From the NCBI GenBank assembly GCA_021812365.1, contig JAKANQ010000004.1, positions 1 through 47,341 on the forward strand: 47,341 nucleotides of DNA, in the 5' to 3' direction. The stretch is from a bacterium (GTDB lineage Bacteria > Patescibacteriota > Minisyncoccia > UBA6257 > GWB1-50-10). The position numbers were made by a program, and so were the translations under genes. The notes under the pieces are model-generated. The model saw only the letters and a list, made by a program, of their open reading frames with translations. It searched no databases and was not told where the DNA came from. Below, one piece after another: positions 14,450 through 47,179 of the stretch; positions within the stretch are counted from its first letter, which is position 1; the number at the start of each line of letters is the position of its first letter.

Positions 14450-14504
14450 TTGAATAATGCCGCGATTTGTGGTATTTTCCTGATTGGCTTTTTAACATAG
14501 GAGA
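14450..14504 (+). promoter_or_regulatory. Promoter, boxA-like motif and SD (module B)
   Basis: TTGAAT-17-TATTTT; GCTTTTTAACA 14487-14497; AGGAGA 14499-14504. Confidence 0.65.
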
Positions 14505-14508
14505 GTCT

Positions 14509-14859
14509 ATGAAATATCGAGAGGTGCGAATGTTTAGGTGTGTGGTGTGCGGTCGTGCTCACATCACAGAGAACAGAGAGGTCATAGCACCAGATTATGT
14601 ACCTGAAGAGAGTTTTAATTGCGACCTGAACAAGTATTCCGACGTGAAGATCGTCGGTGGCGTGCTTTTCAAGAAGAGGGCGGCTCTCGCGTGGGCGCGG
14701 AATGCTCAGCTCGCGTGGGGAAACACTCCTCATGCCGGCATCTGCACCGAGTGCTATTGGGGCGACGCCATTCAGCGCATGCTTCCGTACATCAAGGACG
14801 ATTTGGATGGACGGCCCGCAACGCTTTCCGGCAAGTCCTCAGAAATGATCGCTATTTAG
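14509..14859 (+). CDS. Orphan protein with two CxxC motifs (possible Zn-binding)
   Basis: SD before ATG 14509; CVVC ... CTEC; own terminator. Confidence 0.7.
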   Translation: MKYREVRMFRCVVCGRAHITENREVIAPDYVPEESFNCDLNKYSDVKIVGGVLFKKRAALAWARNAQLAWGNTPHAGICTECYWGDAIQRMLPYIKDDLDGRPATLSGKSSEMIAI

Positions 14860-14867
14860 ATATATAT

Positions 14868-14892
14868 CCCCGCATCCGTGCGGGGTTTTTTG
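14868..14892 (+). terminator. Intrinsic terminator, CCCCGC family
   Basis: CCCCGCA-TCCG-TGCGGGG-T-tract. Confidence 0.85.
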
Positions 14893-14918
14893 TTGATTGT
14901 GTGGTAAAATGAGGTGGT

Positions 14919-15923
14919 ATGAAAATAGGATTTTTTGAGCTGGAGGGATGGGAGGAAAAGATCATACGGGAAAAGTTCAAGGAACATGAACTGCGTTTCA
15001 GTAACGAAAAAGTCTCGCCGGAAAGCCTTCCTACTCAGTTTGATTTCGATGTGATCTGCGTGTTCGTGAACTCCCATCTTACCGCGGATGTCATTGCAAG
15101 GTTTCCTAATTTGAAACTTATCGCCACGCGTTCAACGGGGTTCGACCATATTGATGTTCCCACATGCACCGCGAAGGGAATAAAGGTGGCGTATGTGCCG
15201 GGATATGGCGACAATACTGTCGCCGAATTCGCGTTTGGCCATATATTGAATCTCACGCGAAAGCTCTATCAGGCCATCGACCGAACGAAAAATTTCGAGG
15301 AGTTCTCATTCACGGGCCTTCGAGGGTTTGATTTGAAGGGAAAGACCATTGGTGTTATCGGCACGGGCCGCATTGGAAAAGAGACCATAAAGATAGCGAA
15401 AGGATTCGATATGAACGTAGTCGCATATGACCCGTTTCCGAACGCGGAGGCCGCAGCAACTCTTGGATTTACCTATATGTCCCTTGAGAATCTTTTGGGT
15501 CAGTCGGATATAATCACTATCCATACGCCGCTTAACGAAAGCACGAAGCATTTGATAAATAAAAATACCGTAAAGTTCATAAAACGCGGCGCGTATCTTA
15601 TAAATACCGCGCGCGGCGCGATTGTGGAAACAGACGCGCTTGTATTGGCGCTTATGGATGGCACGCTCGGCGGCGCGGGTCTTGATGTGCTTGAGGAAGA
15701 AGAGGATATAAAAGATGAGATGAGGCTTTTAGGCGAGTCGGAGATTCACGCGGAGCGCGTACGCATGATGCTCACGAATCACGCGCTTATGAAGATGTCG
15801 AATGTATTCATCACTCCGCATACCGCGTTCAATACGAAGGAGGCGATGGAGAGAATTTTAAATACTACCATTGAGAATATATCGGGCTTCATCGGCGGTA
15901 CGCTCAAGAATCTGGTTCCATGA
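14919..15923 (+). CDS. NAD-dependent D-2-hydroxyacid dehydrogenase (D-lactate dehydrogenase-like)
   Basis: 'RSTGFDHID', 'GVIGTGRIG', 'INTARG', 'LDVLEEE', 'TPHTAF'. Confidence 0.9.
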   Translation: MKIGFFELEGWEEKIIREKFKEHELRFSNEKVSPESLPTQFDFDVICVFVNSHLTADVIARFPNLKLIATRSTGFDHIDVPTCTAKGIKVAYVPGYGDNTVAEFAFGHILNLTRKLYQAIDRTKNFEEFSFTGLRGFDLKGKTIGVIGTGRIGKETIKIAKGFDMNVVAYDPFPNAEAAATLGFTYMSLENLLGQSDIITIHTPLNESTKHLINKNTVKFIKRGAYLINTARGAIVETDALVLALMDGTLGGAGLDVLEEEEDIKDEMRLLGESEIHAERVRMMLTNHALMKMSNVFITPHTAFNTKEAMERILNTTIENISGFIGGTLKNLVP

Positions 15924-16594
15924 CGCAAGAGATACGATATGTATGGGTGGGAATAGTGCCGAGAATATTTTTCTTGGCGCTCTTTCTTATTGCCGCGATA
16001 CGCTACGCGATGAGGAACCGCGAGCATCAGCCGCTCGTATTCAAGGCCATTACCTATAAACGGCTTATCTGGTCAGCCATCTTTTTCAAAATCGGATTTG
16101 CAGGAGTGCTCACTCTATTGCAGTACGTCCTTTGGAAGGGGGGCGGATTAGGAAAATTATTCCTGCACGAGGGATTGAGCTCCTCTCTTCCGATTCCGCT
16201 TATTCATCTGTTTCCTTGGATATTCAAGTCTTCTCTCGGCTATTTCATATTTTATTCGCTCCAGCGATTTTGGCTCAATACATTTCTTTCGCTTTTTGTC
16301 GCCTGGCTTTTCTATCACTTTCTCATACTTTTAAAGCGATACAAGGAACGCTTTTTCGAGGAAGGGGAGGTGGAACTCGGGTATCTTATGGCGCTTATTG
16401 TCGGGTGGCCGTTCTTCATCTTGTTCGTTCCTATGGGATTTTTGTTTGTGGTATTCGTATCGATATTCCGCCTCATTTTTTTCAAAGAAGCATACACTAC
16501 GCTCGGGTGGCCGTTCATTTTGGGCGCTTTTACGGCATTTTTGTTCGGTGGTATGCTCATGCCCCTTCTTAGGTTATCTGTTTTCTCCATATAG
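15920..16594 (+). CDS. Polytopic membrane protein, prepilin peptidase (A24)-like C-terminal half
   Basis: 'GEVELGYLMALIVGWP...LGWPFILGAF' resembles A24 'GDVKL...LGW...PFGPFL'. Confidence 0.5.
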   Translation: MTQEIRYVWVGIVPRIFFLALFLIAAIRYAMRNREHQPLVFKAITYKRLIWSAIFFKIGFAGVLTLLQYVLWKGGGLGKLFLHEGLSSSLPIPLIHLFPWIFKSSLGYFIFYSLQRFWLNTFLSLFVAWLFYHFLILLKRYKERFFEEGEVELGYLMALIVGWPFFILFVPMGFLFVVFVSIFRLIFFKEAYTTLGWPFILGAFTAFLFGGMLMPLLRLSVFSI

Positions 16595-16627
16595 GCATTG
16601 AGAAATGGTTCCGTGTATAATGAACGT

Positions 16628-17116
16628 ATGGAATCAATTCAAGAGAAAAAGAAGGTTTCCCCGAAAGATGTATTCATGCATCTTCTCGCAATCGTCACGC
16701 TCTATGTGAGCGCGGTCACATTGTTAGTATTGCTTTTCCAATTCATAGATATTGCGTTTCCCGACGTTCTTACGGGAGGATATTATGCGTTGCAGGGCGC
16801 TTATTCCACGATTCGATTCTCCATCGCCACGCTCCTCGTGGTCTTTCCTGTCTATCTTTTTACAATGCGCTTTTTGAATAGGAGCTATGAGGCTAATCCC
16901 ACGAAGCGCGACTTGAGGATACGGAAGTGGCTCATCTATTTCACGTTGTTTGTCGTGGCACTTGTCGTGATAGGTGATCTTGTGGCACTCATCAACAGTT
17001 TTTTGGGAGGCGAGATAACCACGCGTTTCTCATTGAAGGCTCTCTCGATTCTTTTTGTCACGGGTTCGATATTCTTCTACTATTTCGCGGACATCAAAAA
17101 GCACAACACCGAATAA
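16628..17116 (+). CDS. DUF5671-like membrane protein
   Basis: 'PKDVFMHLLAIVTLY...IRFSIATLLVVFPVY...IRKWLIYFTLFV...GEITTRF.LK'. Confidence 0.7.
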   Translation: MESIQEKKKVSPKDVFMHLLAIVTLYVSAVTLLVLLFQFIDIAFPDVLTGGYYALQGAYSTIRFSIATLLVVFPVYLFTMRFLNRSYEANPTKRDLRIRKWLIYFTLFVVALVVIGDLVALINSFLGGEITTRFSLKALSILFVTGSIFFYYFADIKKHNTE

Positions 17117-17117
17117 T

Positions 17118-17570
17118 ATGAGATATTTCGTATACGGGATAATCGGAGTGGTTGTAGCGGCCATCGTTGCCGGATTTGTGATAGTCGGCTCTCCGAACGA
17201 AGAGCGAATGAGGAGATTCGATGAGCAGCGTGCGAACGATCTCCAAGGGTTGCAGTATGAGATAGTGAACTATTGGCAGGCGAAGGATAAGCTTCCCGAA
17301 ACGCTCACTGCCATACAAGATGACATCCGTGGTATTCGCGTACCGACCGATCCCGAGACGGGGGCGGCATATGAGTATGCGATAAAAGGAAATCTGGAAT
17401 TTGAATTGTGCGCCACCTTCAAAAGAGTGAGCAATGAGACGAATCCTCAGGTGGTGAGGCCTATTGGATTGTACGGAGGCACGAATGAAAATTGGCAACA
17501 TGGCGCGGGGAGGACGTGTTTTACAAGGACCATTGATAAGGATCTCTATCCTCCTTTGAACAAACAATAA
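17118..17570 (+). CDS. Pilin-like membrane-anchored protein
   Basis: N-terminal TM; 'GSP...R..RFD.QR..DL...LP..L...PTDPETG..YEY...FELCATF' with C-terminal Cys pair. Confidence 0.6.
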   Translation: MRYFVYGIIGVVVAAIVAGFVIVGSPNEERMRRFDEQRANDLQGLQYEIVNYWQAKDKLPETLTAIQDDIRGIRVPTDPETGAAYEYAIKGNLEFELCATFKRVSNETNPQVVRPIGLYGGTNENWQHGAGRTCFTRTIDKDLYPPLNKQ

Positions 17571-17583
17571 TTTCGCGGGTTCA

Positions 17584-17805
17584 ATGAAGATACTTGTCAC
17601 CGCAAAACCCGGAGCTAAAACGGAAAAAGTTGAAAAATTAGGCGATAATCATTTCGCGGTGTTCGTGAAGGAAAGAGCGAAAGAGGGGGAGGCGAACAAA
17701 GCGATTGAGAAGGCGCTTGCAAACTATTTTGGCGTAAAGCCATATGAAGTTGAGATAGTATCAGGGCATATGGCGAAAAATAAGCTTGTGGAGATAGTCG
17801 AATAA
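17584..17805 (+). CDS. DUF167/YggU family protein
   Basis: 'V.AKPGAK...EGEANKAI...LA.YFGV...EIVSG...KNK'. Confidence 0.85.
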   Translation: MKILVTAKPGAKTEKVEKLGDNHFAVFVKERAKEGEANKAIEKALANYFGVKPYEVEIVSGHMAKNKLVEIVE

Positions 17806-17867
17806 TCGCGCGTAGTGAAAGCCTTGCGGAACGGAAGTGCTCACTCTATGATGAGGGCCAATACCAT

Positions 17868-19910
17868 ATGAGTCTTTTCAAACTGGTAAGCGACAATAAG
17901 CCCGCAGGAGACCAACCAAAGGCAATCGATGCCTTGGTTTCCGGTATAGAAAAAGGAATGCGGCATCAGACGCTTCTTGGTGTCACGGGATCGGGAAAGA
18001 CGTTCACCATGGCGAATGTGATTCAGCGTATTTCGCGTCCCGCGCTCGTAATAGCGCATAACAAGACCTTGGCGGCGCAGCTTACGAACGAGCTTCGCGA
18101 ATTATTTCCTAAGAATTCAGTGCACTATTTCGTGTCATATTACGATTACTATCAGCCGGAAGCATATATTCCAACCTCCGATACCTACATCGGCAAGGAG
18201 GCGATGATAAACGAGGAGATAGACAAGTTACGCCATGCGGCGACGACCGCGCTTCTTACGCGCCGCGACGTGATAGTGGTCTCATCCGTTTCCTGCATCT
18301 ACGGTCTTGGCGCGCCGCAAGTGTATGCCAAGCACATCTTCCATTTCAAAAAAGGCGACACGATAGATCGCCAGTCATTCGTGAGGAAGCTTGTTGAACT
18401 GCATTTTACGCGCACCAATTCCGATCTTACGCGCGGCACGTTCCGTCTTCGTGGCGACAATTGGGAGATAATGCCTACGGACAGAGAGGTCATCTTCAAC
18501 TTTGAATTGAAGAACGGCATCATAGAGAACATCTATGAGGTTGACCCTGTGGCGGGATATATTCCGGGGAAGACCCCCGCACGCGATGATGTGTTCATTG
18601 CGCCCGCAAAGCACTTCATCACGTTGGCGCCGGAACGCGAACGCGCCATCAAAGAAATTCGAGAAGAGCTGAAGGCGCGCCTCAAGTATTTTGAAAAGCA
18701 TGGAAAATTTTTGGAAGCCGAGCGGCTGGAACGAAGAACGAAGTATGACCTCGCGATGATAAAGGAAGTAGGCTATTGCAACGGCATTGAGAATTATTCT
18801 CAGCATCTTTCGGGAAGGGCTTCCGGTGAGCCGCCGGACACGCTTTTGGATTATTTCCCGAAGGACTTCATGACGTTCATCGATGAATCGCACGTGACCG
18901 TTCCGCAGATCGCGGGCATGTCGGCGGGCGATGCGGCACGCAAAAAGACGCTTGTTGAGTTCGGATTCCGTCTTCCCTCGGCAGCCGATAATCGTCCGCT
19001 CACGTTCGCTGAGTTCAACGCGCGAATAGGACAGGTGGTATTCACTTCCGCGACTCCGGGTCCCTATGAGAATGAAACAAGTTCGGTAGCTAAGGGCGGG
19101 CAGGTGGTAGAGCAAATCATCCGCCCAACCGGCCTTGTGGACCCTGTGGTAACCATTCTTCCCGCGAAAGGACAGGTGCAGGATCTTATTACGCGAATTG
19201 AGTCGCATATCAATGCTCCAAAGGGAAAACGTGAACGTATTCTCGTGACTACGCTTACCAAGAAGATGGCGGAAGACCTTTCCGCATATCTGGAAGAAAA
19301 GAAGATAAAGGTGACGTATTTGCACAGTGATGTAAAAACATTGGACCGCATCAAGATACTCACGAAATTGAGAAGGGGAGAGATAGATGTACTCGTGGGC
19401 GTGAACCTGCTGCGCGAGGGATTGGACTTGCCTGAGGTATCGCTTGTCGCAATTTTGGACGCGGATAAGGAGGGATTTTTAAGGAGTGAGACCGCGCTCG
19501 TACAGACCATCGGCCGCGCCGCGCGTAATGTGAGCGGCGAGGTCTTGATGTACGCGGATAACGTCACCGGTTCGATGGAGCGCGCGATTCGCGAAACAAA
19601 TCGCCGCCGAAAATTACAGCTCGCGTATAACAAGGAGCACAATATCACTCCCAAGACCATCATCAAGGAAATAAAAGATATTTTGCCGATAGAAAAGATA
19701 GAGAAGATAGAACTTGGCGTCGCTCCCAAATCGAAGAAGGCACTCGAGGTCCTTATAAAGGAAAAAGAATATGAGATGCGGGAAGCTGCTGAGGAATTGA
19801 ATTTCGAACTTGCTACTATCTTACGTGAAGAGATAAAAGCGCTCTCGCAAAAACTCGAGGAAGCGAAGAAGGAGCCAAGGGCTGTAAAGGGGAAAAAAAC
19901 CGCCCAATAG
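17868..19910 (+). CDS. uvrB: Excinuclease ABC subunit B
   Basis: 'PAGDQP', 'LGVTGSGKTFT', 'YFVSYYDYYQPEAY', 'DESH', 'NLLREGLDLPEV'. Confidence 0.98.
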   Translation: MSLFKLVSDNKPAGDQPKAIDALVSGIEKGMRHQTLLGVTGSGKTFTMANVIQRISRPALVIAHNKTLAAQLTNELRELFPKNSVHYFVSYYDYYQPEAYIPTSDTYIGKEAMINEEIDKLRHAATTALLTRRDVIVVSSVSCIYGLGAPQVYAKHIFHFKKGDTIDRQSFVRKLVELHFTRTNSDLTRGTFRLRGDNWEIMPTDREVIFNFELKNGIIENIYEVDPVAGYIPGKTPARDDVFIAPAKHFITLAPERERAIKEIREELKARLKYFEKHGKFLEAERLERRTKYDLAMIKEVGYCNGIENYSQHLSGRASGEPPDTLLDYFPKDFMTFIDESHVTVPQIAGMSAGDAARKKTLVEFGFRLPSAADNRPLTFAEFNARIGQVVFTSATPGPYENETSSVAKGGQVVEQIIRPTGLVDPVVTILPAKGQVQDLITRIESHINAPKGKRERILVTTLTKKMAEDLSAYLEEKKIKVTYLHSDVKTLDRIKILTKLRRGEIDVLVGVNLLREGLDLPEVSLVAILDADKEGFLRSETALVQTIGRAARNVSGEVLMYADNVTGSMERAIRETNRRRKLQLAYNKEHNITPKTIIKEIKDILPIEKIEKIELGVAPKSKKALEVLIKEKEYEMREAAEELNFELATILREEIKALSQKLEEAKKEPRAVKGKKTAQ

Positions 19911-19935
19911 GTTGTTTTTCAGTTCAAGAGGTATA

Positions 19936-19992
19936 TTGACAAAATAATATTATCAAGGTATAATGTTTTTGTTAGATTGGTTCTTTGATAAC
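19936..19992 (+). promoter_or_regulatory. Consensus sigma70 promoter and boxA-like motif (module C)
   Basis: TTGACA-17-TATAAT (19936-19964); GTTCTTTGATAAC 19980-19992. Confidence 0.8.
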
Positions 19993-20002
19993 ACGGCAAA
20001 TC

Positions 20003-20148
20003 TTCATACGGCGCGATTCGCGAGGAGCGCACTCAATGTCAGGTTGGCTGATGTCTAGTGCGCTACTCGTTGAGTGGCGACCGTCGCGCGGGTAACGCGC
20101 GTTCTGTACCCAATTTTCGCGCCATTCGGCGCAAGGGGGCTGTATGAA
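20003..20148 (+). ncRNA. Candidate structured 5' leader RNA
   Basis: Stems AGCGCACT/AGTGCGCT (20026-33/20057-64), CGCGCG/CGCGCG (20085-90/20096-101), GGCGCGA/TCGCGCC, TTCATACGGC/GCTGTATGAA over the start codon. Confidence 0.45.
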
Positions 20149-20833
20149 AGCAATGCGGATTTACTTCGAGCTCGTCGGTGGAAAGACCATCGCGATGTTC
20201 GCTGACGGGTTCAGGGCCTTCGAGGCCACGACGCAGAAGCCCGTGAAGGACGGTGCACCCAAGCGGTACACCATGCGTCTCGGCGACGCGACCGGCAGGT
20301 TCGTCACCGTCGGCACGAACGATCGGGAGACCCCCGAGGTCATCACGATCAAGCGAGAGGGCAAGCCGCCCATCCACCTCATCCACCGCATGGACTTCAC
20401 CAAGGTGAAGGACATGAAGCGGAGCAAGGAGACCGGAGAGGATGCCTTCTTCTTCACCATGAGCAAGGAGGCGAACCAGAACGACCTGCGCATCGCCCTT
20501 CAAATCAACACGAAGGGAGCGGCGAATGTCGAGGGCAAGCACGGTACTTACTCCGTCTCCACCGAAGCCATCGAGGGTCTGCCCTTCGGCTACGGCATGA
20601 GCGAGGCCGGCTCGACCTTCCTGGTCGGCCTGACCGTGATCGCCCCTGGCGAGACCATCACGATCACGCCCGAGGGCGGTGAACCCGTTCTGCTCCACTA
20701 CGATGGAGTGAAGGGTCTCGTCTTCGAGCAGCCCGGCTCCTTCGCCCCGCTCATCGCGGAGGCCGAGCCCGAGCATGTGCCGCAGCGCACCCGCCGTGCG
20801 AAGAAGCACCAACAGCATACGACCGAAGCCTAG
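20144..20833 (+). CDS. Orphan hypothetical protein
   Basis: Very strong C/G third-position bias in this frame; AAGGGGG before ATG; own promoter and terminator. Confidence 0.8.
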   Translation: MKAMRIYFELVGGKTIAMFADGFRAFEATTQKPVKDGAPKRYTMRLGDATGRFVTVGTNDRETPEVITIKREGKPPIHLIHRMDFTKVKDMKRSKETGEDAFFFTMSKEANQNDLRIALQINTKGAANVEGKHGTYSVSTEAIEGLPFGYGMSEAGSTFLVGLTVIAPGETITITPEGGEPVLLHYDGVKGLVFEQPGSFAPLIAEAEPEHVPQRTRRAKKHQQHTTEA

Positions 20834-20852
20834 TTCTCGGCCGTCAATCCAT

Positions 20853-20884
20853 CGCCCCGCGCAATTTGCGGGGCGTTTTTTTTA
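20853..20884 (+). terminator. Intrinsic terminator, CCCCGC family
   Basis: CGCCCCGC-GCAATTT-GCGGGGCG-T-tract. Confidence 0.85.
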
Positions 20885-20995
20885 CGCACAAAAAGAGATT
20901 GACTTTTGGTTGGTGGGACACTAAAGTTCGTGTGTGGTATCCCTAGCACGCGAAGTGCCGGGCCATTTCGTTATTCACTCATAAAACATACAGGA

Positions 20996-21021
20996 CCCGC
21001 CTTCGCTAAAGCTACGGTGGG
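20996..21021. repeat. REP-like short palindromic element
   Basis: CCCGCC-TTCGCTAAAGCTAC-GGTGGG; resembles a dispersed repeat I recall from CPR genomes; single copy in this window. Confidence 0.45.
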
Positions 21022-21040
21022 CACGTAAAATAAAAATATC

Positions 21041-23554: not shown

Positions 23555-23560
23555 ATAGTG

Positions 23561-23592
23561 AACAAGGCGCAATGCCAAATTGCGCCTTGTTT
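23561..23592. terminator. Terminator-like hairpin after uvrA
   Basis: AACAAGGCGCAAT-GCCAA-ATTGCGCCTTGTT. Confidence 0.7.
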
Positions 23593-37979: not shown

Positions 37980-38054
37980 TCCTCCTTATGGATCTGTGTT
38001 TGATTCGTTGTTAAAAAACTACCTTCATAAAAGCATAAACGGCATGTTTTGCAA
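37980..38054 (-). promoter_or_regulatory. Promoter (weak -10), boxA-like motif and SD (module G)
   Basis: Minus strand TTGCAA; GTTTTTTAACAAC (38019-38007); AAGGAGGA. Confidence 0.55.
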
Positions 38055-38096
38055 ATAACCAATTGGAGATATAGCATTACGGTATCGAGAGAACGT

Positions 38097-39299: not shown

Positions 39300-39314
39300 T
39301 CTATAATAAGTCTA

Positions 39315-40163: not shown

Positions 40164-40498
40164 TGATGAGATTGCTGAATAAGACGAAACATATCGTGCT
40201 TGCGGAAGATATACGCACGGCCGAAACACTCGCGGAAAAAGCGAAGGGACTTTTGGGGAAGGAGCAGCCTGAAGCCCTCTATCTTGAAACGCGGTTTGGG
40301 ATTCATACGTTCGGGATGAAGTTTTCCATTGATTGCGCGGTTCTTGATGATTCGTTCGCGGTAAGGGCTCTGCGAACACGCATGCATCCGAACAGGATGT
40401 TCTTTTGGAATCCTCGATTTTCCCGTGTGGTAGAGTTGCCCGAGGGCACGCTTTCTCACACGGGAACGGCGATTGGCGATATATTGGCGCTTGAATGA
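40163..40498 (+). CDS. DUF192 family protein
   Basis: 'A.T..EK.KGLLG', '[11 protein letters not shown]', 'VVELP.G'. Confidence 0.85.
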
Positions 40499-40520
40499 GC
40501 GTTATGATATTATTTTTCGC

Positions 40521-41024
40521 ATGGAAATAAATAAGGATGGGAAAGTATTTATTGGGCTCATCGTCGTTCTTATAGTCGCCATTGTCGGTGTGGTGTATAA
40601 GATAACGAAGCCTTCCTCGGGTTCTCCGGTAAGCGTCACGTCGAATAATAATCAACCTATAACTATGAACGTCACAACACAGCCGGTTTCATCAAATGAC
40701 GGTTTGCAGATAACGGATGAGGTGGTAGGAACGGGAGCGGAAGCGGTCGCGGGAAAGAAGGTCACCGTGCACTATGTCGGCACTTTGACCGACGGAAAGA
40801 AGTTCGACAGTTCTTGGGACAGGGGCACTCCGTTCACCTTCGATCTTGGCGCAGGCCAGGTCATCAAGGGATGGGATGAAGGAGTTTCGGGAATGAAGGT
40901 CGGCGGAAAGAGAAAATTGGTGATTCCTCCCGCGCTTGCATACGGCAATCGTGAGGCGGGAAATGGTTTAATTCCCGCGAATTCAACACTCGTCTTCGAG
41001 ATTGAATTGCTCAATGTGCAATAA
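40521..41024 (+). CDS. FKBP-type peptidyl-prolyl isomerase
   Basis: '[33 protein letters not shown]', '[14 protein letters not shown]'. Confidence 0.96.
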
Positions 41025-41040
41025 TCTTTTTGCATCAATG

Positions 41041-41071
41041 AAAAACACCCGTGCATCACGGGTGTTTTTTT
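41041..41071. terminator. Intrinsic terminator
   Basis: AAAAACACCCGTG-CAT-CACGGGTGTTTTT. Confidence 0.85.
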
Positions 41072-41107
41072 ATGCAAGCTAGTAATGAGGTATACTTAGA
41101 CTATTAT

Positions 41108-42751
41108 ATGGGAGAAGAAGAATTAAAGAAGGTTATACAAGGGGATGTGCTCATTGATGACACAACGCGTGCTCACTATAGCCGTGATGCGAGTATTTTT
41201 GAGGTAACGCCTTCTTTCGTGGTATTTCCCAAAGATGCGGAAGACGTGAAGCATCTGGTGAAGCTTGTGAGTGAGGCGAAGGGGAGGGGCGATGATGTTT
41301 CGCTCACCGCGCGTTCCGCGGGGACCGATATGGGTGGAGGGCCTCTCACCGAGTCCATCGTCATGGACTTCACGAAATATTTTAAGAAGACTTCCGATGT
41401 AAGTGTGAAGAATAATGAGGGATATATTACTTCCGAACCTGGCGTATTCTATCGTGATTTTGAAAAGAAAACGTTGGAAAGCGGATATCTTCTTCCTTCG
41501 TATCCCGCCTCGCGCAGTTTGTGCGCTATAGGCGGCATTGTGGCAAATGATTCGGGGGGTGAGAAGACGCTTAAATACGGGAAGACGCACGATTACGTGG
41601 AACGGTTAAATGTGGTTCTCTCGGATGGCGAGCTTCATGAGATAAAAGCGCTCACTCCTCAAGAATTGGCGGAGAAGGAGCAATTACACACATTTGAGGG
41701 CGAGGTCTATCGCAAAATGCATGCGTTGCTTGAAACGAACTATGATGCGGTCCATGCCGCAAAACCGAACGTGTCGAAAAATTCGGCGGGGTATGACCTA
41801 TGGAATGTGTGGGATAGAAAGCGATTTGATCTTACAAAATTATTCGTGGGATCGCAGGGCACGCTTGGCATCGTTACGGAGGCGGAATTTCGTTTGGTGA
41901 AGACAAAGCCATATTCGGGAATGCTCGTGGTCTTTTTGAAAGATTTCAATTCCATCATACCTGTAGTGAAGGAGGTGTTGCCATTCAAACCTTCAAGCTT
42001 TGAATCATTTGATGACAAGACATTCAAACTTGCGCTCAAATTCTTATGGGGCTTCATAACAATATTGGCAAAGAATCCATTCTCGCTTGCATTCTCATTC
42101 TTGCCTGAGTTTTTCCTTGTGCTTACCAAAGGAATGCCGAAGCTTATCCTTCTTGTTGAATTTGAGGAAGATACCGAGGAGGCGGTCATTGAAAAGATAG
42201 ATGGGCTCAAGAAAAAACTTGAACCGCTCCACCTTACCATGCGCGTCGCGAAGACAAGGGAAGAGTCGGATAAATATTGGGCGATACGCCGCGAGAGCTT
42301 CAATCTGTTACGCCAGCGCGTGAAGGGGATGCAAGCGGCGGCTTTCGTCGATGACATCATCGTGCGTCCCGAATTCATTCCCGAATTCTTGCCGAAGCTC
42401 TATCAGATACTTGATAAGTATGAGTTCTTCTCCACGGTTGCGGGACATATGGGCGATGGAAACTTCCACATCATTCCGCTTCTCAAGCTTGCGAATGAAT
42501 CCGACCGAATGAAGATTCATCCCGCGATGGATGAGGTCTATACGTTGGTCTTAAGCTATGGGGGATCCATCACCGCAGAACATAACGACGGGCTTATTCG
42601 AAGTCCGTATCTCACGCAGATGTTCGGAGAAAAGATTACGAATTTATTTGCAGAGGTGAAGACCATCTTCGATCCCAATGGCATCTTCAACCCGAGAAAG
42701 AAAGTGGGAGCGAGCATCGAGTATGCGATGGCGCATATAAAGAAAAGCTAA
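41108..42751 (+). CDS. FAD-linked oxidoreductase (GlcD / D-lactate dehydrogenase type)
   Basis: 'RSAGT..GG', 'GSQGTLGIVT', 'GHMGDGNFH', 'AEHNDG', 'FDPNGIFNP.K'. Confidence 0.9.
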   Translation: MGEEELKKVIQGDVLIDDTTRAHYSRDASIFEVTPSFVVFPKDAEDVKHLVKLVSEAKGRGDDVSLTARSAGTDMGGGPLTESIVMDFTKYFKKTSDVSVKNNEGYITSEPGVFYRDFEKKTLESGYLLPSYPASRSLCAIGGIVANDSGGEKTLKYGKTHDYVERLNVVLSDGELHEIKALTPQELAEKEQLHTFEGEVYRKMHALLETNYDAVHAAKPNVSKNSAGYDLWNVWDRKRFDLTKLFVGSQGTLGIVTEAEFRLVKTKPYSGMLVVFLKDFNSIIPVVKEVLPFKPSSFESFDDKTFKLALKFLWGFITILAKNPFSLAFSFLPEFFLVLTKGMPKLILLVEFEEDTEEAVIEKIDGLKKKLEPLHLTMRVAKTREESDKYWAIRRESFNLLRQRVKGMQAAAFVDDIIVRPEFIPEFLPKLYQILDKYEFFSTVAGHMGDGNFHIIPLLKLANESDRMKIHPAMDEVYTLVLSYGGSITAEHNDGLIRSPYLTQMFGEKITNLFAEVKTIFDPNGIFNPRKKVGASIEYAMAHIKKS

Positions 42752-42760
42752 CGAAAGTAC

Positions 42761-42785
42761 AAAAAGCCCCGCATGTGCGGGGCTT
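42761..42785. terminator. Terminator, CCCCGC family (U-tract on minus strand)
   Basis: AAAAAGCCCCGC-ATGT-GCGGGGCTT. Confidence 0.8.
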
Positions 42786-42788
42786 ACG

Positions 42789-43082
42789 CTATAAACGCTG
42801 AGGAGGAATGACGTGAAAGTTATTCTGAATGAGTACCGTATTACTTCCTGTGTATCGTTCGCCTTTCCAGATAAGAGTGAGGCCATCGCGAAAGACGTGG
42901 ATGACATCCATTCCAATCTCCGTCTTGAGAAGAAACAGATTCATGCGTCCGCTTTTTTCAAGGATTGCCTCATGCGTGTGGACGAACGTATACAAGCTGT
43001 AAAAATTCATGAAGCAGCACTCCTTCATCTTCTCAGCTGTCGCATTGGCAACACACTCAAATCTGATGGTACCGCCGTTCAT
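42789..43082 (-). CDS. Orphan 97-aa protein (module I)
   Basis: ATG 43082 (MNGGTIRFEC) with GGAGG, own promoter and terminator. Confidence 0.6.
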   Translation of the reverse strand: MNGGTIRFECVANATAEKMKECCFMNFYSLYTFVHTHEAILEKSGRMNLFLLKTEIGMDVIHVFRDGLTLIWKGERYTGSNTVLIQNNFHVIPPQRL

Positions 43083-43087
43083 CGTTG

Positions 43088-43142
43088 CCTCCACTATATG
43101 AAGTTCTTTGTGCATAGTGGCACAAAACAAGGGGAGCGTCAA
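43088..43142 (-). promoter_or_regulatory. Promoter, degenerate boxA-like motif and SD (module I)
   Basis: Minus strand TTGACG-17-CACTAT; GAACTTCATATA; GGAGG. Confidence 0.5.
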
Positions 43143-43164
43143 AAGAAAGGAGGTGGAGTATTCG

Positions 43165-43277
43165 TTGACAAACGTCAATTTATGTGATAAAATACGTTTG
43201 TTCGTAATGAACATTAACAACTGAGCAATCGTGCTCATTTTCCCACTTTTCACGCGACGTGTTCGCGGTATGGAGGA
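43165..43277 (+). promoter_or_regulatory. Promoter, boxA-like motif, hairpin and SD (module H)
   Basis: TTGACA-17-TAAAAT; GAACATTAACAAC 43209-43221; TGAGCA-ATCG-TGCTCA-TTTT; GGAGGA 43272-43277. Confidence 0.75.
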
Positions 43278-43282
43278 AGTAC

Positions 43283-43723
43283 ATGGGAAGCATGGTAAGT
43301 GTTGCCGAGCAGTGCGGCATTCATCCCTACAGTGAGGGAGCACTCACTGTCGTGCGCCATAGGCGGAATCCGATTGAGTCTTGGAATCCTCGGCGCGTAC
43401 AGTCCTACTACACGCAATCCCAATCCGACAGCCGACTCGTGAGCGGCCACAAGCTGTGGAAGGAACTCGATGGGATGAACAATCTGAACATCGAGGTCTT
43501 CAACTGGTTCTGGAGCAACAAGTTCTTCTTTCCGCTCGAGTGGTGTGAGCGCAAGAACGGGAAGCCTGTCTTCGTCTTCTTCTGGGGAACGATTCTTCTG
43601 ACCTCGGATGGCAAACCGTGCGTGGCCTGCCTGTGGCGCGAGCCCAATGGTCTCCGGCGCGGCTACCGCCTCCTGGATTCCATGTTCGATGCCAACAGCC
43701 CGGCGGCTCAGTACACGTTCTAA
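43283..43723 (+). CDS. Hypothetical aromatic-rich protein
   Basis: SD-supported ATG 43283; strong C/G third-position bias; 'P.EW...VFFWGTI...DG..CV.CL...PAA'. Confidence 0.75.
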   Translation: MGSMVSVAEQCGIHPYSEGALTVVRHRRNPIESWNPRRVQSYYTQSQSDSRLVSGHKLWKELDGMNNLNIEVFNWFWSNKFFFPLEWCERKNGKPVFVFFWGTILLTSDGKPCVACLWREPNGLRRGYRLLDSMFDANSPAAQYTF

Positions 43724-43728
43724 TCATC

Positions 43729-43768
43729 AGCCCTCTACGAAATACGTTTCGTAGAGGGCTCTTTCTTT
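43729..43768 (+). terminator. Intrinsic terminator
   Basis: AGCCCTCTACGAAA-TACG-TTTCGTAGAGGGCT-CTTTCTTT. Confidence 0.85.
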
Positions 43769-43822
43769 ACTTAATTGTTTTTTTATTGTACATTAATGCG
43801 ACTCTCACTAGGAGGAGGAATC

Positions 43823-45055
43823 ATGTTTGAAATAGTAAAGAACGATACAAAGACAAGAGCGAGAGTAGGCACTTTAACAGTTCCGCATGGCGGAAAACTT
43901 CTTACTCCCGCGTTCACCATGGTCGGCACTCGCGCGAAAGTGATTTCGCTCGAACCGAACGACCTCGTGCGCACGAATACGGGCATCGTCATTTCCAATA
44001 CGTACCATCTTTGGAGAGGGCTCGGAGAAAGACTTCCCGAGTTCAAAGGGCTCCATACGGTGATGGGATACGATGGAGTGATCGCGACCGATTCGGGCGG
44101 TTTCCAGGTGTTCTCACTTGGATTCGGCCGTGAGCACGAAGTTTCAAAAATAGGATTTTTTCCCGAGGAGGAAAAGACGCCGGGATTTCTTTCGGACCTT
44201 TTCCTTCAGATTCGCATCTGGCTCGGCATCAAGCATTCGCGCAATTCAGTGCGCGTGATGCCTTGGGGCGCGTATTTCAAGGATGAGAATTACGGCGATG
44301 AGCGATCGGTCTTTTTGAACGCAACGAAATCGATAATGCTTCAAGAAAAACTTGGCGCTGATATCATTTTGGCATTCGATGAGTGCACCTCTCCGCGTCA
44401 CGGACGGCATTACACGAAGTGGGCGATGAAGCGCACTCACCGATGGGCGAAGAAGTGCCTTGCGGTGAAATCAAATCCGAATCAGCTCCTGTTCGGCATC
44501 GTGCAGGGCGGCGCGTTCGAAGATCTGCGCAAGGAAAGCGCGCGCACGATAGGCAGCATGCCGTTCGACGGATTCGCGATAGGAGGCTCGCTCGGTAATT
44601 CGAAGGAGGATATGTACCGTGTGCTTGAATGGAGCATGCCGTATCTTCCCGACGAGAAGCCGCGCCATCTTTTAGGCATTGGTCAGATTCGCGATATCTT
44701 TGAAGGTGTCGAACGCGGCATTGATACGTTTGATTGCGTCATCCCAACGCGTGAAGCGCGCCACGGCGCGATTTGGACATACGACGGGCGATACGACGTG
44801 ACCAAGGGCGCGAACAAGAATGCGGATGTTCCGCTCGCTCCCGATTGCGCGTGTCCCGCCTGCGCTTCTGGCATCACTCGCGCGAAACTTCACGAGCTCT
44901 TTAAGAATAAGGACAGGGAAGCGGGCAAGCTTGCCACGCTCCACAACGTCTATTTTTTCAACGACCTCATGAAGAGCATTCGGCAGGCGATCATGGAAGA
45001 CAGGTTTTCGGAATACAAGGAAGCCGCGCTCTCGCGCATCGAAAAGAAGAAGTAA
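43823..45055 (+). CDS. tgt: tRNA-guanine transglycosylase
   Basis: 'NTYHL', 'TDSGGFQVFSL', 'FDEC', 'GIVQGG', 'PRHLLGIG', 'DTFDCVIPTR.ARHG', C.C..C...H Zn site. Confidence 0.95.
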   Translation: MFEIVKNDTKTRARVGTLTVPHGGKLLTPAFTMVGTRAKVISLEPNDLVRTNTGIVISNTYHLWRGLGERLPEFKGLHTVMGYDGVIATDSGGFQVFSLGFGREHEVSKIGFFPEEEKTPGFLSDLFLQIRIWLGIKHSRNSVRVMPWGAYFKDENYGDERSVFLNATKSIMLQEKLGADIILAFDECTSPRHGRHYTKWAMKRTHRWAKKCLAVKSNPNQLLFGIVQGGAFEDLRKESARTIGSMPFDGFAIGGSLGNSKEDMYRVLEWSMPYLPDEKPRHLLGIGQIRDIFEGVERGIDTFDCVIPTREARHGAIWTYDGRYDVTKGANKNADVPLAPDCACPACASGITRAKLHELFKNKDREAGKLATLHNVYFFNDLMKSIRQAIMEDRFSEYKEAALSRIEKKK

Positions 45056-45060
45056 CATAC

Positions 45061-45087
45061 GCCCCCGCACTCGCGGGGGTTTTTCTT
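45061..45087 (+). terminator. Intrinsic terminator, CCCCGC family
   Basis: GCCCCCGC-ACTC-GCGGGGGT-TTTT. Confidence 0.85.
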
Positions 45088-45110
45088 GTCGTTACGGTAT
45101 AATGAAATCA

Positions 45111-45956
45111 ATGAAACGATTTCTCGCAGCCATCCCCGTGTTGATCTTCGCGTTTGCCGGCACCGCGCATGCGAATGCAACCGTAACCGTCTCCAGTTTT
45201 TCTCCTTACCAAGGCGATACCGTCTTAGTCATGTTCCGCAATAGCGCGCATCCGGTTTCCGGCTCGTTTTTGGGGCGTTCGCTTTCGTTCTTCACCTATC
45301 ACAACGCATCAAGCACCATTCTTCCCATATCCGCACTGCAAAAGGCGGGGAAGTATTCTCTTGTCATACGATTGAGCAACGGCGAGACGTACAAACACAT
45401 CGTAACGGTGCGCACGAAGAAGTTTGTGAAGGTGGTGCTCGGTATTCCGAAGGAATTGGGGCTCACCACAAGCGGACTGCTCACGAAACTCGGCGAACAG
45501 AAAGCAAGCATTGACGATGTGGTGAAACATGTGACTTCACGCGTATATTTTGACAGATCATTCGGGCTGCCGCTCTATGACAATTCAAAGATAAGTACCA
45601 CATTCGGTTCGATTCGTGAGACGGGCAATTCACTCATCCATCATTGGGGCATCGACCTTGCGGGGAAGGAGGGGTCCGCAGTCGGCTCGATGAGCGGGGG
45701 CGTGGTGAAGAGTACCTACACCGATTCGGTATATGGCAACGTGGTCATTGTGGACCATGGTGAGGGAATCTATTCGCTCTATCTCCATCTGCAGAAGATT
45801 TTGGTGAAGGAAGGGGAGAAGGTAGAGCGTGGACACGTGGTCGGTCTTTTGGGACACACGGGGTACGCGACCGGTCCACACCTTCATCTCTCCATGAAAA
45901 TAGATTCCATTCCTGTTGACCCCGTCCAGTTCGTGGCATTGTTCAAAAAATATTGA
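45111..45956 (+). CDS. M23 family metallopeptidase
   Basis: Signal peptide; 'HWGIDLA', 'YGNVVIVDHG', 'YLHL', 'TGPHLH'. Confidence 0.93.
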   Translation: MKRFLAAIPVLIFAFAGTAHANATVTVSSFSPYQGDTVLVMFRNSAHPVSGSFLGRSLSFFTYHNASSTILPISALQKAGKYSLVIRLSNGETYKHIVTVRTKKFVKVVLGIPKELGLTTSGLLTKLGEQKASIDDVVKHVTSRVYFDRSFGLPLYDNSKISTTFGSIRETGNSLIHHWGIDLAGKEGSAVGSMSGGVVKSTYTDSVYGNVVIVDHGEGIYSLYLHLQKILVKEGEKVERGHVVGLLGHTGYATGPHLHLSMKIDSIPVDPVQFVALFKKY

Positions 45957-46032
45957 CGATAGATTGTTTTTATAGTATTTTATTTTCAGCTTTTTAACAG
46001 GTTCAAGTGTGAACCATTGCTGCCTAAGGAGG
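45953..46032 (+). promoter_or_regulatory. Promoter, boxA-like motif, hairpin and SD (module J)
   Basis: TTGACG-17-TATTTT; GCTTTTTAACA 45989-45999; GGTTCA-AGTG-TGAACC; AAGGAGG 46026-46032. Confidence 0.7.
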
Positions 46033-46036
46033 GCAC

Positions 46037-47143
46037 GTGAACGAAAAGATCGCAAAGCTTTCACCAAACTTGCAAGCGCTCATCGTCGAGAAGAAGACGT
46101 CAGAGGCTTCGCTTGATCACTTTCGCCACACGCTTCAGAATCCCCGCGGCACCATCTCGAGTTTCGCGGAGAGCGCACTGCTTCACTGCAATGGCGGTGC
46201 CGCGCTCGATGCGGCACTCTGGCTGCGGCGCCATCTCAATAATGGCGGGAAGCTTGTCATCACTCTCGCGGGTGCCTTGAGTTCGTTCGAGATCGGCGTG
46301 CTTCTCACTCCGCTCATCAGAGCCGGTAAGGTGCACCTCGTTTCCGCGACGGGTGCGAATCACGAGGAATCGTATTACCGCTACGTCGCGAGCAAGGAGT
46401 ACCGTTATATTCCGCGCTACACCGAACTTACTCCCGAGCAGGAGGCGGAGCTTCGTGACGCCGGCCTTCGGCGCATCACTGATACGTTTCTCCCCGAGGA
46501 TGAGAGTGTGCGTATTTTGGAGCCGCACCTTTTGGATATGTGGCGGAATGCCGAGAAACATGGCGAACGCTTTTTCCCGCATGAGTATTTTCGTCGCTTC
46601 TTTACCGAGGGGCTTATCGCTTCCGATACGCAGCTTGGTGAGGAGGAGTGCTGGGTCCACGCGGCGTGGAAGCATTCGATTCCCATCGTGATCCCAGGAT
46701 TCGAAGATTCGACGATGGGGAACATCTTCGCGAGCTACACCTATCCGCATGGGAAACATAAGAGCAAAGCTCAGGTTTTGCTCAACCCGAATATCATGAA
46801 GACGGGGCTGGATTACTTCCATCTCATGTATGACTGGTATATGGAGGAGAGCGAGGACGCGCCCATCGCGTTCCTGCAGCTCGGTGGCGGCATCTCGGCG
46901 GATTTTCCAATCTGTGTCGTGCCATCCTTAAAGCATGACCTCGGGCTTCATGGCAAGGTGCGCGATTGGGCGGGTTTCATTGAGATCGGCTCATCGCCTA
47001 TGTCCTACGGCTCATATTCAGGTGCCGGCGGCAAGGAGAAGATCACATGGGATAAGCTTTCCACAAAAAGCTATTACCAGATCATTCAGAGCGATGTGAC
47101 CGTAGTCTTTCCCTGGATTGCCGCGATTCTGCTTGGACTGTAA
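46037..47143 (+). CDS. Deoxyhypusine synthase-like protein
   Basis: 'TLAGALSS', 'SATGAN.EE', 'RITDT..PE', 'PGFEDSTMGN', 'LGGGIS.DF', 'GSYSGA...EKITWDKL', 'SDVTVVFP'. Confidence 0.9.
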   Translation: MNEKIAKLSPNLQALIVEKKTSEASLDHFRHTLQNPRGTISSFAESALLHCNGGAALDAALWLRRHLNNGGKLVITLAGALSSFEIGVLLTPLIRAGKVHLVSATGANHEESYYRYVASKEYRYIPRYTELTPEQEAELRDAGLRRITDTFLPEDESVRILEPHLLDMWRNAEKHGERFFPHEYFRRFFTEGLIASDTQLGEEECWVHAAWKHSIPIVIPGFEDSTMGNIFASYTYPHGKHKSKAQVLLNPNIMKTGLDYFHLMYDWYMEESEDAPIAFLQLGGGISADFPICVVPSLKHDLGLHGKVRDWAGFIEIGSSPMSYGSYSGAGGKEKITWDKLSTKSYYQIIQSDVTVVFPWIAAILLGL

Positions 47144-47152
47144 GCAAATTTT

Positions 47153-47179
47153 CCCCCGCGTTCCGCGGGGGTTTTTATT
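47153..47179 (+). terminator. Intrinsic terminator, CCCCGC family
   Basis: CCCCCGCG-TTC-CGCGGGGG-TTTTTATT. Confidence 0.85.

Follow-up and report, generated by a model that had tools for sequence, protein, structure and literature searches.

Single-gene transcription units sharing a promoter-linked leader element in the small genome of a patescibacterium

Stand-alone units in the window

Bacteria of the candidate phyla radiation (CPR) combine tiny genomes and few recognisable regulators with a large proportion of genes that belong to no known family. The stretch analysed here, hereafter the window, is the 47,341-nucleotide contig JAKANQ010000004.1 (assembly GCA_021812365.1), that is, the entire contig C1 of an assembly of 626,283 bases in 25 contigs with an estimated completeness of 98.2%, and its host is a CPR (Patescibacteria) bacterium with a very small genome. 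The closest public counterparts of its UvrB, at about 60% identity, come from metagenome-assembled genomes assigned to Uhrbacteria, Magasanikbacteria, Parcubacteria, Saccharibacteria or the Patescibacteria group. The initial annotation of this window had described nine dispersed genes, each with its own promoter, an 11-13-mer resembling boxA, a Shine-Dalgarno (SD) site, one open reading frame (ORF) and an intrinsic terminator, and had proposed for them a Nus-dependent expression cassette. The nine motif strings, the promoters, SD sites, single ORFs and terminators all lie at the places given there, and these stereotyped single-gene transcription units are confirmed as real. We show below that the grammar which they share, a promoter followed by a short leader motif, is statistically real, orientation-specific and conserved in orthologous promoters, that it marks mostly small, family-less genes of high G+C content at third codon positions (GC3), and that such genes occupy intergenic spots at which sister species have either nothing or other genes. 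Copying of one element does not account for the features that the units share.

In each of the nine units a single ORF is flanked by its own promoter and its own terminator. The motif begins with a G lying 6-15 nucleotides (nt) beyond the -10 hexamer, a GGAG-type SD site is present in all nine, the leaders extend over 16-164 nt to the start codon, and a G+C hairpin with a T run is found within 10-25 nt of every stop codon. The units and two further features are listed below; the number in brackets after a motif is the distance from the -10 hexamer to the motif G, and for the four minus-strand sites the motif coordinate is that of the 5' G, i.e. the high coordinate.

Unit A, 14450-14885, plus strand: -35 TTGAAT 14450-14455; TGg and -10 TATTTT 14473-14478; motif GCTTTTTAACA 14487-14497 (8 nt); SD GGAGAG; ORF 14509-14859, 116 amino acids (aa), cysteine-rich, no Pfam match; terminator 14868-14885.
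Unit C, 19936-20885, plus strand: -35 TTGACA 19936-19941; -10 TATAAT 19959-19964; motif GTTCTTTGATAAC 19980-19992 (15 nt); leader 164 nt; ORF 20144-20833, 229 aa, G+C 0.63, GC3 0.86, no Pfam match; terminator 20853-20875.
25977-gene unit, 25905-26434, plus strand: -35 TTGACA 25905-25910; -10 TAGAAT 25927-25932; motif GAACCTTAATAAC 25945-25957 (12 nt); ORF 25977-26396, 139 aa, putative cell-wall-hydrolase-like protein; terminator 26400-26424.
30365-gene unit, 30331-30813, minus strand: -35 TTGACT 30813-30808; -10 TACTTT 30791-30786; motif GCACCTTGAAAA from 30779 (6 nt); ORF 30763-30365, 132 aa, proline-rich membrane-anchored orphan; terminator 30355-30331.
30856-gene unit, 30823-31217, minus strand: -35 TTTACA 31217-31212; TG and -10 TATGGT 31194-31189; motif GCACATCGCACA from 31181 (7 nt), the weakest of the nine (2.8 bits); ORF 31158-30856, 100-aa orphan; terminator 30848-30823.
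tdk unit, 37312-38055, minus strand: -35 TTTGCA 38055-38050; -10-like TTTTAT 38032-38027; motif GTTTTTTAACAAC from 38019 (7 nt; 13.1 bits); ORF 37976-37341, thymidine kinase; two-way terminator 37330-37312.
42789-gene unit, 42764-43142, minus strand: -35 TTGACG 43142-43137; -10 CACTAT 43119-43114; motif GAACTTCATATA from 43106 (7 nt); ORF 43082-42789, 97-aa orphan; terminator 42785-42764.
43283-gene unit, 43165-43770, plus strand, divergent from the preceding one: -35 TTGACA 43165-43170; TG and -10 TAAAAT 43188-43193; motif GAACATTAACAAC 43209-43221 (15 nt; 14.2 bits); ORF 43283-43723, 146-aa orphan, GC3 0.75; terminator 43729-43760.
Deoxyhypusine-synthase-family unit, 45953-47181, plus strand: -35 TTGACG 45953-45958; -10 TATTTT 45976-45981; motif GCTTTTTAACA 45989-45999 (7 nt; 11.9 bits with the preceding CA); ORF 46037-47143; terminator 47153-47171.
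Big_5 (bacterial Ig-like) surface-protein gene, 5'-truncated, 1-1752, plus strand: GC3 0.71; terminator CCCCCGC...GCGGGGG at about 1722-1752; promoter off the contig.
uvrA promoter, 20899-20927, plus strand: TTGACT-17-TAAAGT, without the leader motif; conserved right border of a variable spot between uvrB and uvrA.

Within the window the string GCTTTTTAACA occurs only at 14487 and 45989. A promoter scan finds five of the nine unit promoters, at 19936-19964 (12 of 12 matches), 25905-25932 and 43165-43193 (11 of 12 each), and 45953-45981 and 31217-31189 (9 of 12 each); the other four have weak -10 hexamers (TATTTT, TACTTT, TTTTAT and CACTAT) and were identified by reading the sequence. Promoter-like hits overall do not rise above shuffles (27 vs 25.3; 26 vs 22.9), and terminator-like hits exceed them (34 vs 21.6; 37 vs 19.1).

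As to the cargo, which had been given as six orphans, a '3D' protein, a thymidine kinase and a deoxyhypusine-synthase-like enzyme, both enzymes are recognised by Pfam and the six orphans remain without a match (E<=0.01), while the '3D' label of the protein encoded at 25977-26396 finds no confirmation there, this protein having only weak matches in PDB and PHROG. As to the C/G-ending codon use noted for several cargo genes, GC3 is at least 0.60 in eight of ten units, counting the Big_5 gene; for the genome as a whole the median is 0.53 and the 90th percentile 0.62. PHROG matches exist for two of the ten cargo proteins, both to families of unknown function, and for the other eight there are none; the product of the 30856 gene matches PHROG 7775 (unknown function) with E 3.8e-13. 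The orphan of unit C has only three homologues, of 82-87% identity, among 5.8 billion protein clusters. Allelic variants of this orphan are seen at 20127-20374 in DNA contigs from four runs of one study and agree with the 82-87% identical proteins of public assemblies; either the gene evolves fast or related populations carry several alleles of it.

A possible tenth unit is the truncated Big_5 gene at 1-1704. At the end of contig C25 there is the start of a Big_5 gene behind a motif promoter; a comparison of the head of C1 with the other contigs found no overlap by which the truncated gene could be joined to it. At the other end of the window the last 127 nt (47215-47341) are identical to the end of contig C5, so that these two contigs probably join.

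Around the units lie the neighbours named in the initial annotation, all of them confirmed by Pfam: a ppsA-like PEP-utilising gene (11966-14422) and a D-isomer 2-hydroxyacid dehydrogenase (14919-15923), uvrB (17868-19910), uvrA (21041-23554) and uvrC (38097-39299), an FAD-linked oxidase (41051-42751), tgt (43775-45055) and an M23 peptidase (45102-45956). A tRNA-Ser gene (anticodon GGA) at 31242-31329 on the minus strand lies directly upstream of, and on the same strand as, the promoter of the 30856-gene unit (31217-30823); its stretch has many short DNA matches on several contigs of each congener, as expected of tRNA genes.

The leader element across the genome

For the genome as a whole we used a rough custom gene caller (647 genes), from which 423 upstream regions were taken. 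Expectation-maximisation (EM) over whole upstream regions drifted to the T tails of terminators and to runs of A, and the search was consequently anchored on predicted promoters; the discovery set comprised the 98 upstream regions with a σ70-like promoter and at least 22 nt beyond the -10, the 30 nt past the -10 being analysed. Without any supplied motif, and started from 40 random subsequences of these segments, EM returned aAGtActTTAACAA, occupied in 65 of the 98 segments, with a log-likelihood of 134.7 against 47.0-59.8 in 12 composition-preserving shuffles. Motif discovery, which the initial annotation had called for on all 5' regions, recovers the leader motif genome-wide and far above shuffles when run on promoter-downstream segments; the same count disposes of the notion that the motif is special to the nine or ten units, as it follows 65 of 98 predicted promoters. 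The motif being degenerate, 7-mer counts and strict IUPAC patterns were uninformative, and it was listings of TTRAYAAC and TTTTAACA that gave the first hint of sites beyond the window.

The motif is phased with the promoter. Among the 65 occupied segments it lies at offset 5 in 29, at offset 4 in five and at offset 6 in six, with 25 elsewhere, which places the A of the motif 7 nt beyond the -10. When the 98 segments are simply aligned on the -10, and no motif is searched for, column 6 is C in 42, column 7 A in 55, column 8 G in 43 and column 13 T in 57 (p ~1e-10). Likewise, if AG at columns 7-8 is the sole criterion of choice, 36 segments remain, in which T occupies column 13 in 31 and column 14 in 23, C column 17 in 19 and A column 18 in 22. 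A scan that makes no use of gene calls and takes in 851 promoter-like sites from the two strands finds a position weight matrix (PWM) score of at least 8 bits 24 times at offset 5, as compared with 0.68 per control offset, an enrichment of 35-fold or more. Over offsets 0-20 the forward motif gives 52 hits, its reverse complement, which is hardly enriched, has 21 where about 14 are expected, and a second, small forward group of at least 13 hits lies at offsets 8-12, where 3.4 are expected. Taken as a PWM alone the motif is weak: at 12 bits or more the sense strand of upstream regions (34 kb) has 12 sites, their antisense strand (31 kb) none and coding positions (1.07 Mb) 21. The motif is thus real, directional and tied to promoters, and it is a genome-wide feature.

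Could there be no element at all, the A+T-rich, G-poor composition of short leaders and a reader's selection of sites having created the impression of one? The window sites taken singly, as 11-13-mers, are indeed weak (2.8-14.2 bits under the genome PWM), word counts and strict consensus patterns are unremarkable, and scores of at least 10 bits occur in coding DNA too (177 in 1.07 Mb). We consider this explanation barely tenable, since no shuffle exceeded a log-likelihood of 59.8, a T at one particular column emerges without motif search, the enrichment at one offset is at least 35-fold, the TT of the motif is invariant in six orthologous tdk promoters, and a relative from another family, put through the same pipeline, lacks the block.

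The promoters of the class have a make-up of their own. In a set of 30 members TTGAC is found in 23-29, a TRTG precedes the -10, which is weak at its first and its third to fifth positions, and G-T-G occupies -4 to -2 in 17-19. The triplet at the presumptive start is C in 18, A in 25 and G in 23; the region from +3 to +13 is almost free of G, with TT at +7/+8 followed by A-A-C-A-A, so that the consensus reads AG WWC N TT W AC AA and the leader RNA of these units is of the AGUUCUUUAACAAC type. For bacteria at large, Kuo et al. (2025, PMC12641261) report a 3-bp 'start' element (YRY/YRR) whose centre falls on the start site, 7 bp past the -10, as well as a TRTG extended -10, and they describe a lineage-specific composition of the initial transcribed region. 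The host promoters agree exactly with the first two of these features, with C-A-G having its A at the seventh nucleotide and TGTG or TATG before the -10; they are σ70 promoters with a 'start' triplet and with TRTG 2 bp before the -10, and we infer that CAG is the ordinary transcription 'start' element. By contrast, neither the position-specific TT at +7/+8 with ACAA nor its link to a class of genes is described in the passages of Kuo et al. (PMC12641261) that were consulted. As far as our searches of the Patescibacteria/CPR promoter literature show, a leader element of this kind (TT at +7/+8, ACAA) is undescribed.

Relatives, which are kin rather than independent samples, carry the element to different degrees. 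In about 100 kb of one congener (G003) the identical pipeline returned AGaAcattTCACAA; two other genera of the family (about 100 kb each) have weaker, A+T-richer variants, e.g. AGCAATTTATTAAC and TCTTTAACAAAAGG; and in a genome from another family of the order there is a TAAG-type start signal only, with a log-likelihood of 46 against 39-43 in shuffles. Judged from orthologous promoters, the leader element is under constraint. In the tdk promoters of six congeners the -35 is invariant, TTTGCAAAA and the -10 are kept and the TT of the motif is invariant, and the stretch from the block to the SD site varies in length by up to 13 nt. In the promoter of the 25977 gene in G003 and G007 the block (GTTCCTTAATAAC there, GAACCTTAATAAC here) is kept despite a 4-nt indel that shifts its distance from the -10.

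At what level the block acts is a separate question. It might be a DNA-level element of the core promoter or initial transcribed region, affecting start choice, open-complex stability or promoter escape and offsetting the weak -10, with no role in RNA. The single-base phasing with the -10 (24 hits of at least 8 bits at one offset), the class-specific make-up of the promoters (TTGAC in 23-29 of 30, TRTG, weak -10 positions), the strand specificity, and the lineage-specific initial transcribed regions known from the literature (PMC12641261) would all fit such an element. We nonetheless think it improbable, in that at least 13 forward hits lie at offsets 8-12 (3.4 expected), the block of the 25977 gene has stayed intact across a 4-nt indel relative to the -10, and sequences like it have been conserved downstream of the 16S 3' processing stem, at a place with no evident promoter. 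Moreover, RNA polymerase is not known to make any contact that reads sequence at +7 to +13.

Alternatively, a DNA-binding regulator, such as one that globally represses or silences accessory genes, might sit over the start site and have its operator in the block. Its position from +1 to +13 is typical of repressor operators, it marks a class of genes rather than all promoters, and it is conserved between orthologues; yet the motif is neither a palindrome nor a direct repeat, keeps strictly to one orientation relative to transcription, and follows some two thirds of the predicted promoters, a large number for a single regulator when the whole genome has about 650 genes, and no candidate regulator was identified, so that an operator seems to us very unlikely. 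A LexA-type GAAC-N4-GTTC box, brought to mind by the many sites that begin with AGAAC or AGTTC, was rejected by eye, the second half-site being absent.

Genes behind the element and the sites they occupy

Outside the window 42 genes have a motif promoter (posterior at least 0.72), of which 40 were scanned with Pfam; 34 have a promoter without the motif (posterior below 0.3), of which 20 were scanned. A Pfam match was found for 12 of the 40 motif genes and for 17 of the 20 non-motif genes (Fisher p 8e-5; 3e-4 with curated cut-offs), as well as for 18 of 20 other genes of the window; in G003 the figures are 0 of 7 genes behind a clear motif promoter and 3 of 3 others. The 12 comprise two thymidylate kinases, a PepF-type M3 peptidase, FtsZ, a pilin-type N_methyl protein, Big_5, SET and PP2C proteins, two M16 peptidases, an MFS protein and TypA/BipA, the remaining 28 being without any match; the non-motif genes include those of ribosomal proteins, SecA, ClpP, ClpB, DnaA, MnmA and YchF. 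Motif genes are also shorter (median 162 aa vs 213 for all genes) and higher in GC3 (0.58 vs 0.53, with several at 0.75-0.89). Three ribosomal-protein genes have a GC3 of 0.47-0.50, so that a high value is no mark of high expression here. The tie between the motif and an orphan-like, high-GC3, single-gene cargo, as it had been proposed for the window, accordingly extends to the genome.

Of the 42 motif genes, 29 have a perfect hairpin with a T run no more than 80 nt past the stop, compared with 11 of 33 non-motif promoter genes and 121 of the 539 others. The terminator stems are stereotyped as well, with a strong over-representation of the CCCGC-loop-GCGGG form: counted over the two strands it occurs 144 times in the genome, in 61 cases with a T run, and ten other G+C pentamer stems range from 0 to 51.

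Two near-identical copies of a 657-aa gene without Pfam match lie at C8:1088-3061 and C21:857-2830, with motif promoters 90% identical, and represent either a recent duplication or one region assembled twice. The 30-nt terminator at 47150-47179 of the window is identical to the one after this gene on C21 (819-848) and 93% identical on C8.

In a DNA comparison with seven congeners, five of the nine units, namely unit A, unit C, the 42789/43283 pair and the deoxyhypusine-synthase-family gene, have no match in any of the seven. The 30365-gene unit likewise has no DNA match in the congeners and is not counted among these five, for which the sites were assessed. The other three genes are conserved to some extent: tdk in five of the seven, the 25977 gene in four and the 30856 gene in two (G003 and G002). 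At the site of unit A the stop of ppsA is separated from the ATG of the next gene, the D-2-hydroxyacid dehydrogenase, by 26-27 nt in G003 and G007. At that of unit C the uvrB stop runs directly into the conserved uvrA promoter (TTGACT-17-TAAAGT) in G001 and G005; in G006 the same spot is taken by another unit, which encodes 77 aa, has a promoter, a AGCATTATCG leader, an SD site and a terminator of its own, and is followed by the uvrA promoter; and it contains two units in G004 and at least two genes in G002, each preceded by TTGAC(A/T)-17-TAT(A/C)AT, 5 nt and CAG. The gap upstream of tgt, which here houses the 42789/43283 pair in about 1.3 kb, measures 207-345 nt in G001, G005 and G006, and that at the deoxyhypusine-synthase-family gene 327-337 nt in G002 and G004 against 1226 nt here. 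The empty sites that synteny had been expected to reveal thus exist, between uvrB and uvrA as well as between ppsA and the dehydrogenase gene.

Similar regulatory signals at variable sites could point to insertable units, as the initial annotation had considered. At 29 unconstrained promoter positions, however, the mean identity is 0.311 between motif pairs, 0.290 between non-motif pairs and 0.297 across the two, the C8/C21 duplicate alone reaching 0.90; the regulatory regions are not homologous copies, and the idea of a mobile promoter or copied cassette was dropped. What emerges is a set of accessory genes, placed at permissive intergenic spots and sharing one expression grammar, rather than a transposable cassette. 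Gain and loss probably proceed by recombination in the flanking core genes. Among the DNA contigs that match 14000-33999 none cleanly removes a unit; contigs of related populations that fit from 14919 rightwards and have other letters leftwards, together with the variants within 20127-20374, provide weak hints. The matches listed for 37300-47179 are DNA contigs from four runs of one study and include no RNA run.

Comparable arrangements are known in the morons of phages, in the promoter-early-stem-loop (PeSL) elements of T4-type phages and in 'mobile promoters'. In the last two, novel ORFs of variable regions, though unrelated to each other, lie between promoters and terminators that resemble one another. 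Both are homologous copies, whereas the units of the host, apart from the C8/C21 pair, stand at background identity (0.311 vs 0.290). Morons are independent promoter-ORF-terminator units between conserved phage genes (PMC3594210). With these the present units have in common the autonomous promoter-ORF-terminator organisation, a deviating composition, a frequently unknown cargo and a position between genes that are adjacent in relatives, the last being found for five of the nine units and not for the tdk, 25977 and 30856 genes. They differ from morons in lying in a cellular chromosome among core genes (uvrB/uvrA, ppsA, tgt) instead of in a prophage, in their conserved leader block, and in the scarcity of PHROG matches (two of ten cargo proteins). 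Their flanks (uvrB, uvrA, uvrC, the ppsA-like gene, tgt, the M23 peptidase) do not indicate residence in a phage or prophage.

Two other observations concern the order of genes in this region. In G001, G005 and G006 the tdk region follows almost directly after uvrA and the block 24487-37305 is elsewhere, while G003 and G007 keep the order of the window (23608-37305), so that a rearrangement within the genus has occurred around uvrA-tdk. The stretch 31544-35000, with a G+C content of 0.34-0.40 compared with about 0.48, begins with an EcoRI-type adenine methyltransferase gene at 31544-32707 (PF13651, E 7e-123) and is probably a restriction-modification islet of foreign origin.

Nus factors, rRNA leaders and the role of the block

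The initial annotation had taken the leader motif for a boxA. On this reading the block would bind NusB and NusE (S10) on the nascent RNA, and the Nus-modified polymerase would bring about antitermination, or a translational gating as at suhB, of an accessory-gene regulon. According to Baniulyte et al. (PMC5725501), boxA has the consensus GYTCTTTAANA in gamma-proteobacteria, with 0-7 mRNA sites per gamma-proteobacterial genome, and near an SD site it can repress translation. Like boxA of rrn operons, lambdoid nut sites and E. coli suhB, the block is a G-poor 11-13-mer, U-rich and then A-rich, with an initial G and located early in the transcript, often a few nt before the SD site; in register it agrees with that consensus (PMC5725501) at G1, T6, T7, A8, A9 and A11. 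Some sites come very near to it (GTTCTTTAACAAC on C11, GTCTCTTAACAAC on C22 and GTTCCTTAATAAC in the orthologues of the 25977 gene), and GTTCCTTAATAAC has GTTCCTT in common with 16S-leader candidates of G007 and G008. Its distance from the start can be greater by 3-8 nt, and in many cases the block directly adjoins the SD site, as in suhB. Finally, the lineage has NusA, NusG and NusB, the last in 28 of 31 genomes. NusB (PF01029) was not found in the present assembly, although six of the seven congeners are among the 28; as the nusB locus of G003 maps exactly between the contig ends C11:25007 and C6:7201, its absence here most likely reflects an assembly gap and not a loss.

On the other side, exact matches to GYTCTTTAANA number seven in the genome, two of them within 50 nt of a gene start and none among the nine window sites; those two lie within the 0-7 mRNA sites per gamma-proteobacterial genome, whereas the leader motif has dozens of sites (PMC5725501). 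At position 3 the motif has a preference for A, and no more than about 45% of its sites have the critical C4. The boxA candidates in the rRNA leaders and trailers of the lineage, a comparison proposed in the initial annotation, score only 2.6-7.1 bits under the leader PWM, with GTTCCTTGAAAGC and GGTCATTGAAAAG from the rrn leaders at 2.6-5.8 bits. The Rho RNA-binding domain (PF07497) was found in none of the 31 genomes of the order, 9 of 14 control genomes being positive. Each unit consists of one gene with its own terminator, and most sites, unlike the boxA of rrn or nut, are locked to the start site. Where no Rho was found and every unit has a terminator of its own, it is hard to see what classical Nus antitermination would do. 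Compared with known boxA systems, then, the block is degenerate, mostly start-locked and present at dozens of monocistronic units in an order in which no Rho was found; it is only loosely boxA-like. The antitermination proposed in the initial annotation is unlikely, and for a boxA regulon as a whole, gating included, the prospects seem to us poor. Another role of Nus factors, or another RNA-binding factor, may account for the block.

The rRNA genes of the lineage bear on this comparison. At the loci inspected (L102-L111, from the relatives G003, G007, G008, G010 and G020 and from contig C20 of the present assembly), the 16S and 23S genes of the relatives are unlinked, on different contigs or far apart, and each has its own promoter and terminator. 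BoxA-like sequences follow a hairpin in the leaders (GCGTTCCTTGAAAGC and GCGTTCCTTACAAGA before 16S, GCGGTCATTGAAAAG before 23S), and another is conserved right after the 16S 3' processing stem (AAGAAAGTCCTTAATTA here), with a terminator within about 100-150 nt.

The reading that we prefer, and to which we give roughly even credence, is that of autonomous single-gene units in a CPR genome that combine a start element with a leader element acting in the transcript and that are gained and lost in the manner of morons. The class comprises at least about 40-65 units in 626 kb. Its grammar consists of a σ70-type promoter with a strong -35 TTGAC, a 17-nt spacer, a TRTG-type extended -10 and an often weak -10 hexamer; of C-A-G, with the A 7 nt past the -10; of a leader block poor in G, in which TT at +7/+8 is near-invariant and A-C-A-A comes next; and of a strong SD site, one ORF and an intrinsic terminator. 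The TTWACAA block most likely acts at the 5' end of the transcript as a cis element separate from the start triplet, and would set the translation or stability of short-leader monocistronic mRNAs, possibly through a bound factor. A transcript-level element is favoured by the single orientation, by the retention of the block when its distance from the -10 shifts, by the second group further downstream and by the likenesses in the rRNA precursors. In a cellular chromosome the units would behave as morons do: accessory genes would arrive with the standard expression signals of the lineage, or acquire them, and would be gained and lost between core genes. In a bolder version, which we hold to be distinctly unlikely, NusB-S10 as the prime candidate would read a 5' boxA-like tag in this Rho-less lineage and gate the translation or stability of recently acquired or fast-evolving orphans, an accessory-gene regulon of about 7-10% of genes in which the tag would enable newcomers to be expressed.

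Several points weigh against the preferred reading. The sharp phasing with the -10 is compatible with a DNA-level promoter or initial-transcribed element as well, and gene calls, promoters and transcription starts are predictions. A role as a specially unstructured leader was tried and rejected, for predicted RNA structure does not separate motif leaders from others (z-score of the minimum free energy -0.45 in both classes; probability of being unpaired over the first 14 nt 0.63 with the motif vs 0.61 without). The promoters that were counted had also served to train the PWM; the custom caller missed or mis-started some genes, which makes the counts lower bounds and the comparison classes noisy. 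Housekeeping genes carry the motif too (ftsZ, typA/bipA, two thymidylate kinases, tdk, and M16 and M3 peptidases), and an absent Pfam or DNA match is a proxy for accessory status and not its proof. Lastly, the differences between the sites may reflect gain here or loss elsewhere.

The results provide a sequence grammar by which stand-alone, lineage-specific units of such a genome can be predicted, and variable spots between core genes, such as that between uvrB and uvrA, are seen to be refilled with different units in sister species, a moron-like behaviour in a cellular chromosome. Were NusB-S10 or another factor to bind the element, Rho-less organisms would be putting the Nus machinery to a new use; were the element to act at the level of the polymerase, the known core promoter would be extended. 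Either way, the units offer ready-made expression signals for genetic work in these organisms.

A minor observation concerns the region upstream of 23S in three relatives (L108 of G007, L110 of G003 and L107 of G008), where a conserved stretch of about 90 nt lies between a strong promoter and the 23S leader. It ends in a terminator-like hairpin (..ACGAATGA.A.TC..TCGGCGG.TA.C...GGCGGTTTTTT) and may be a small RNA gene or a leader structure.

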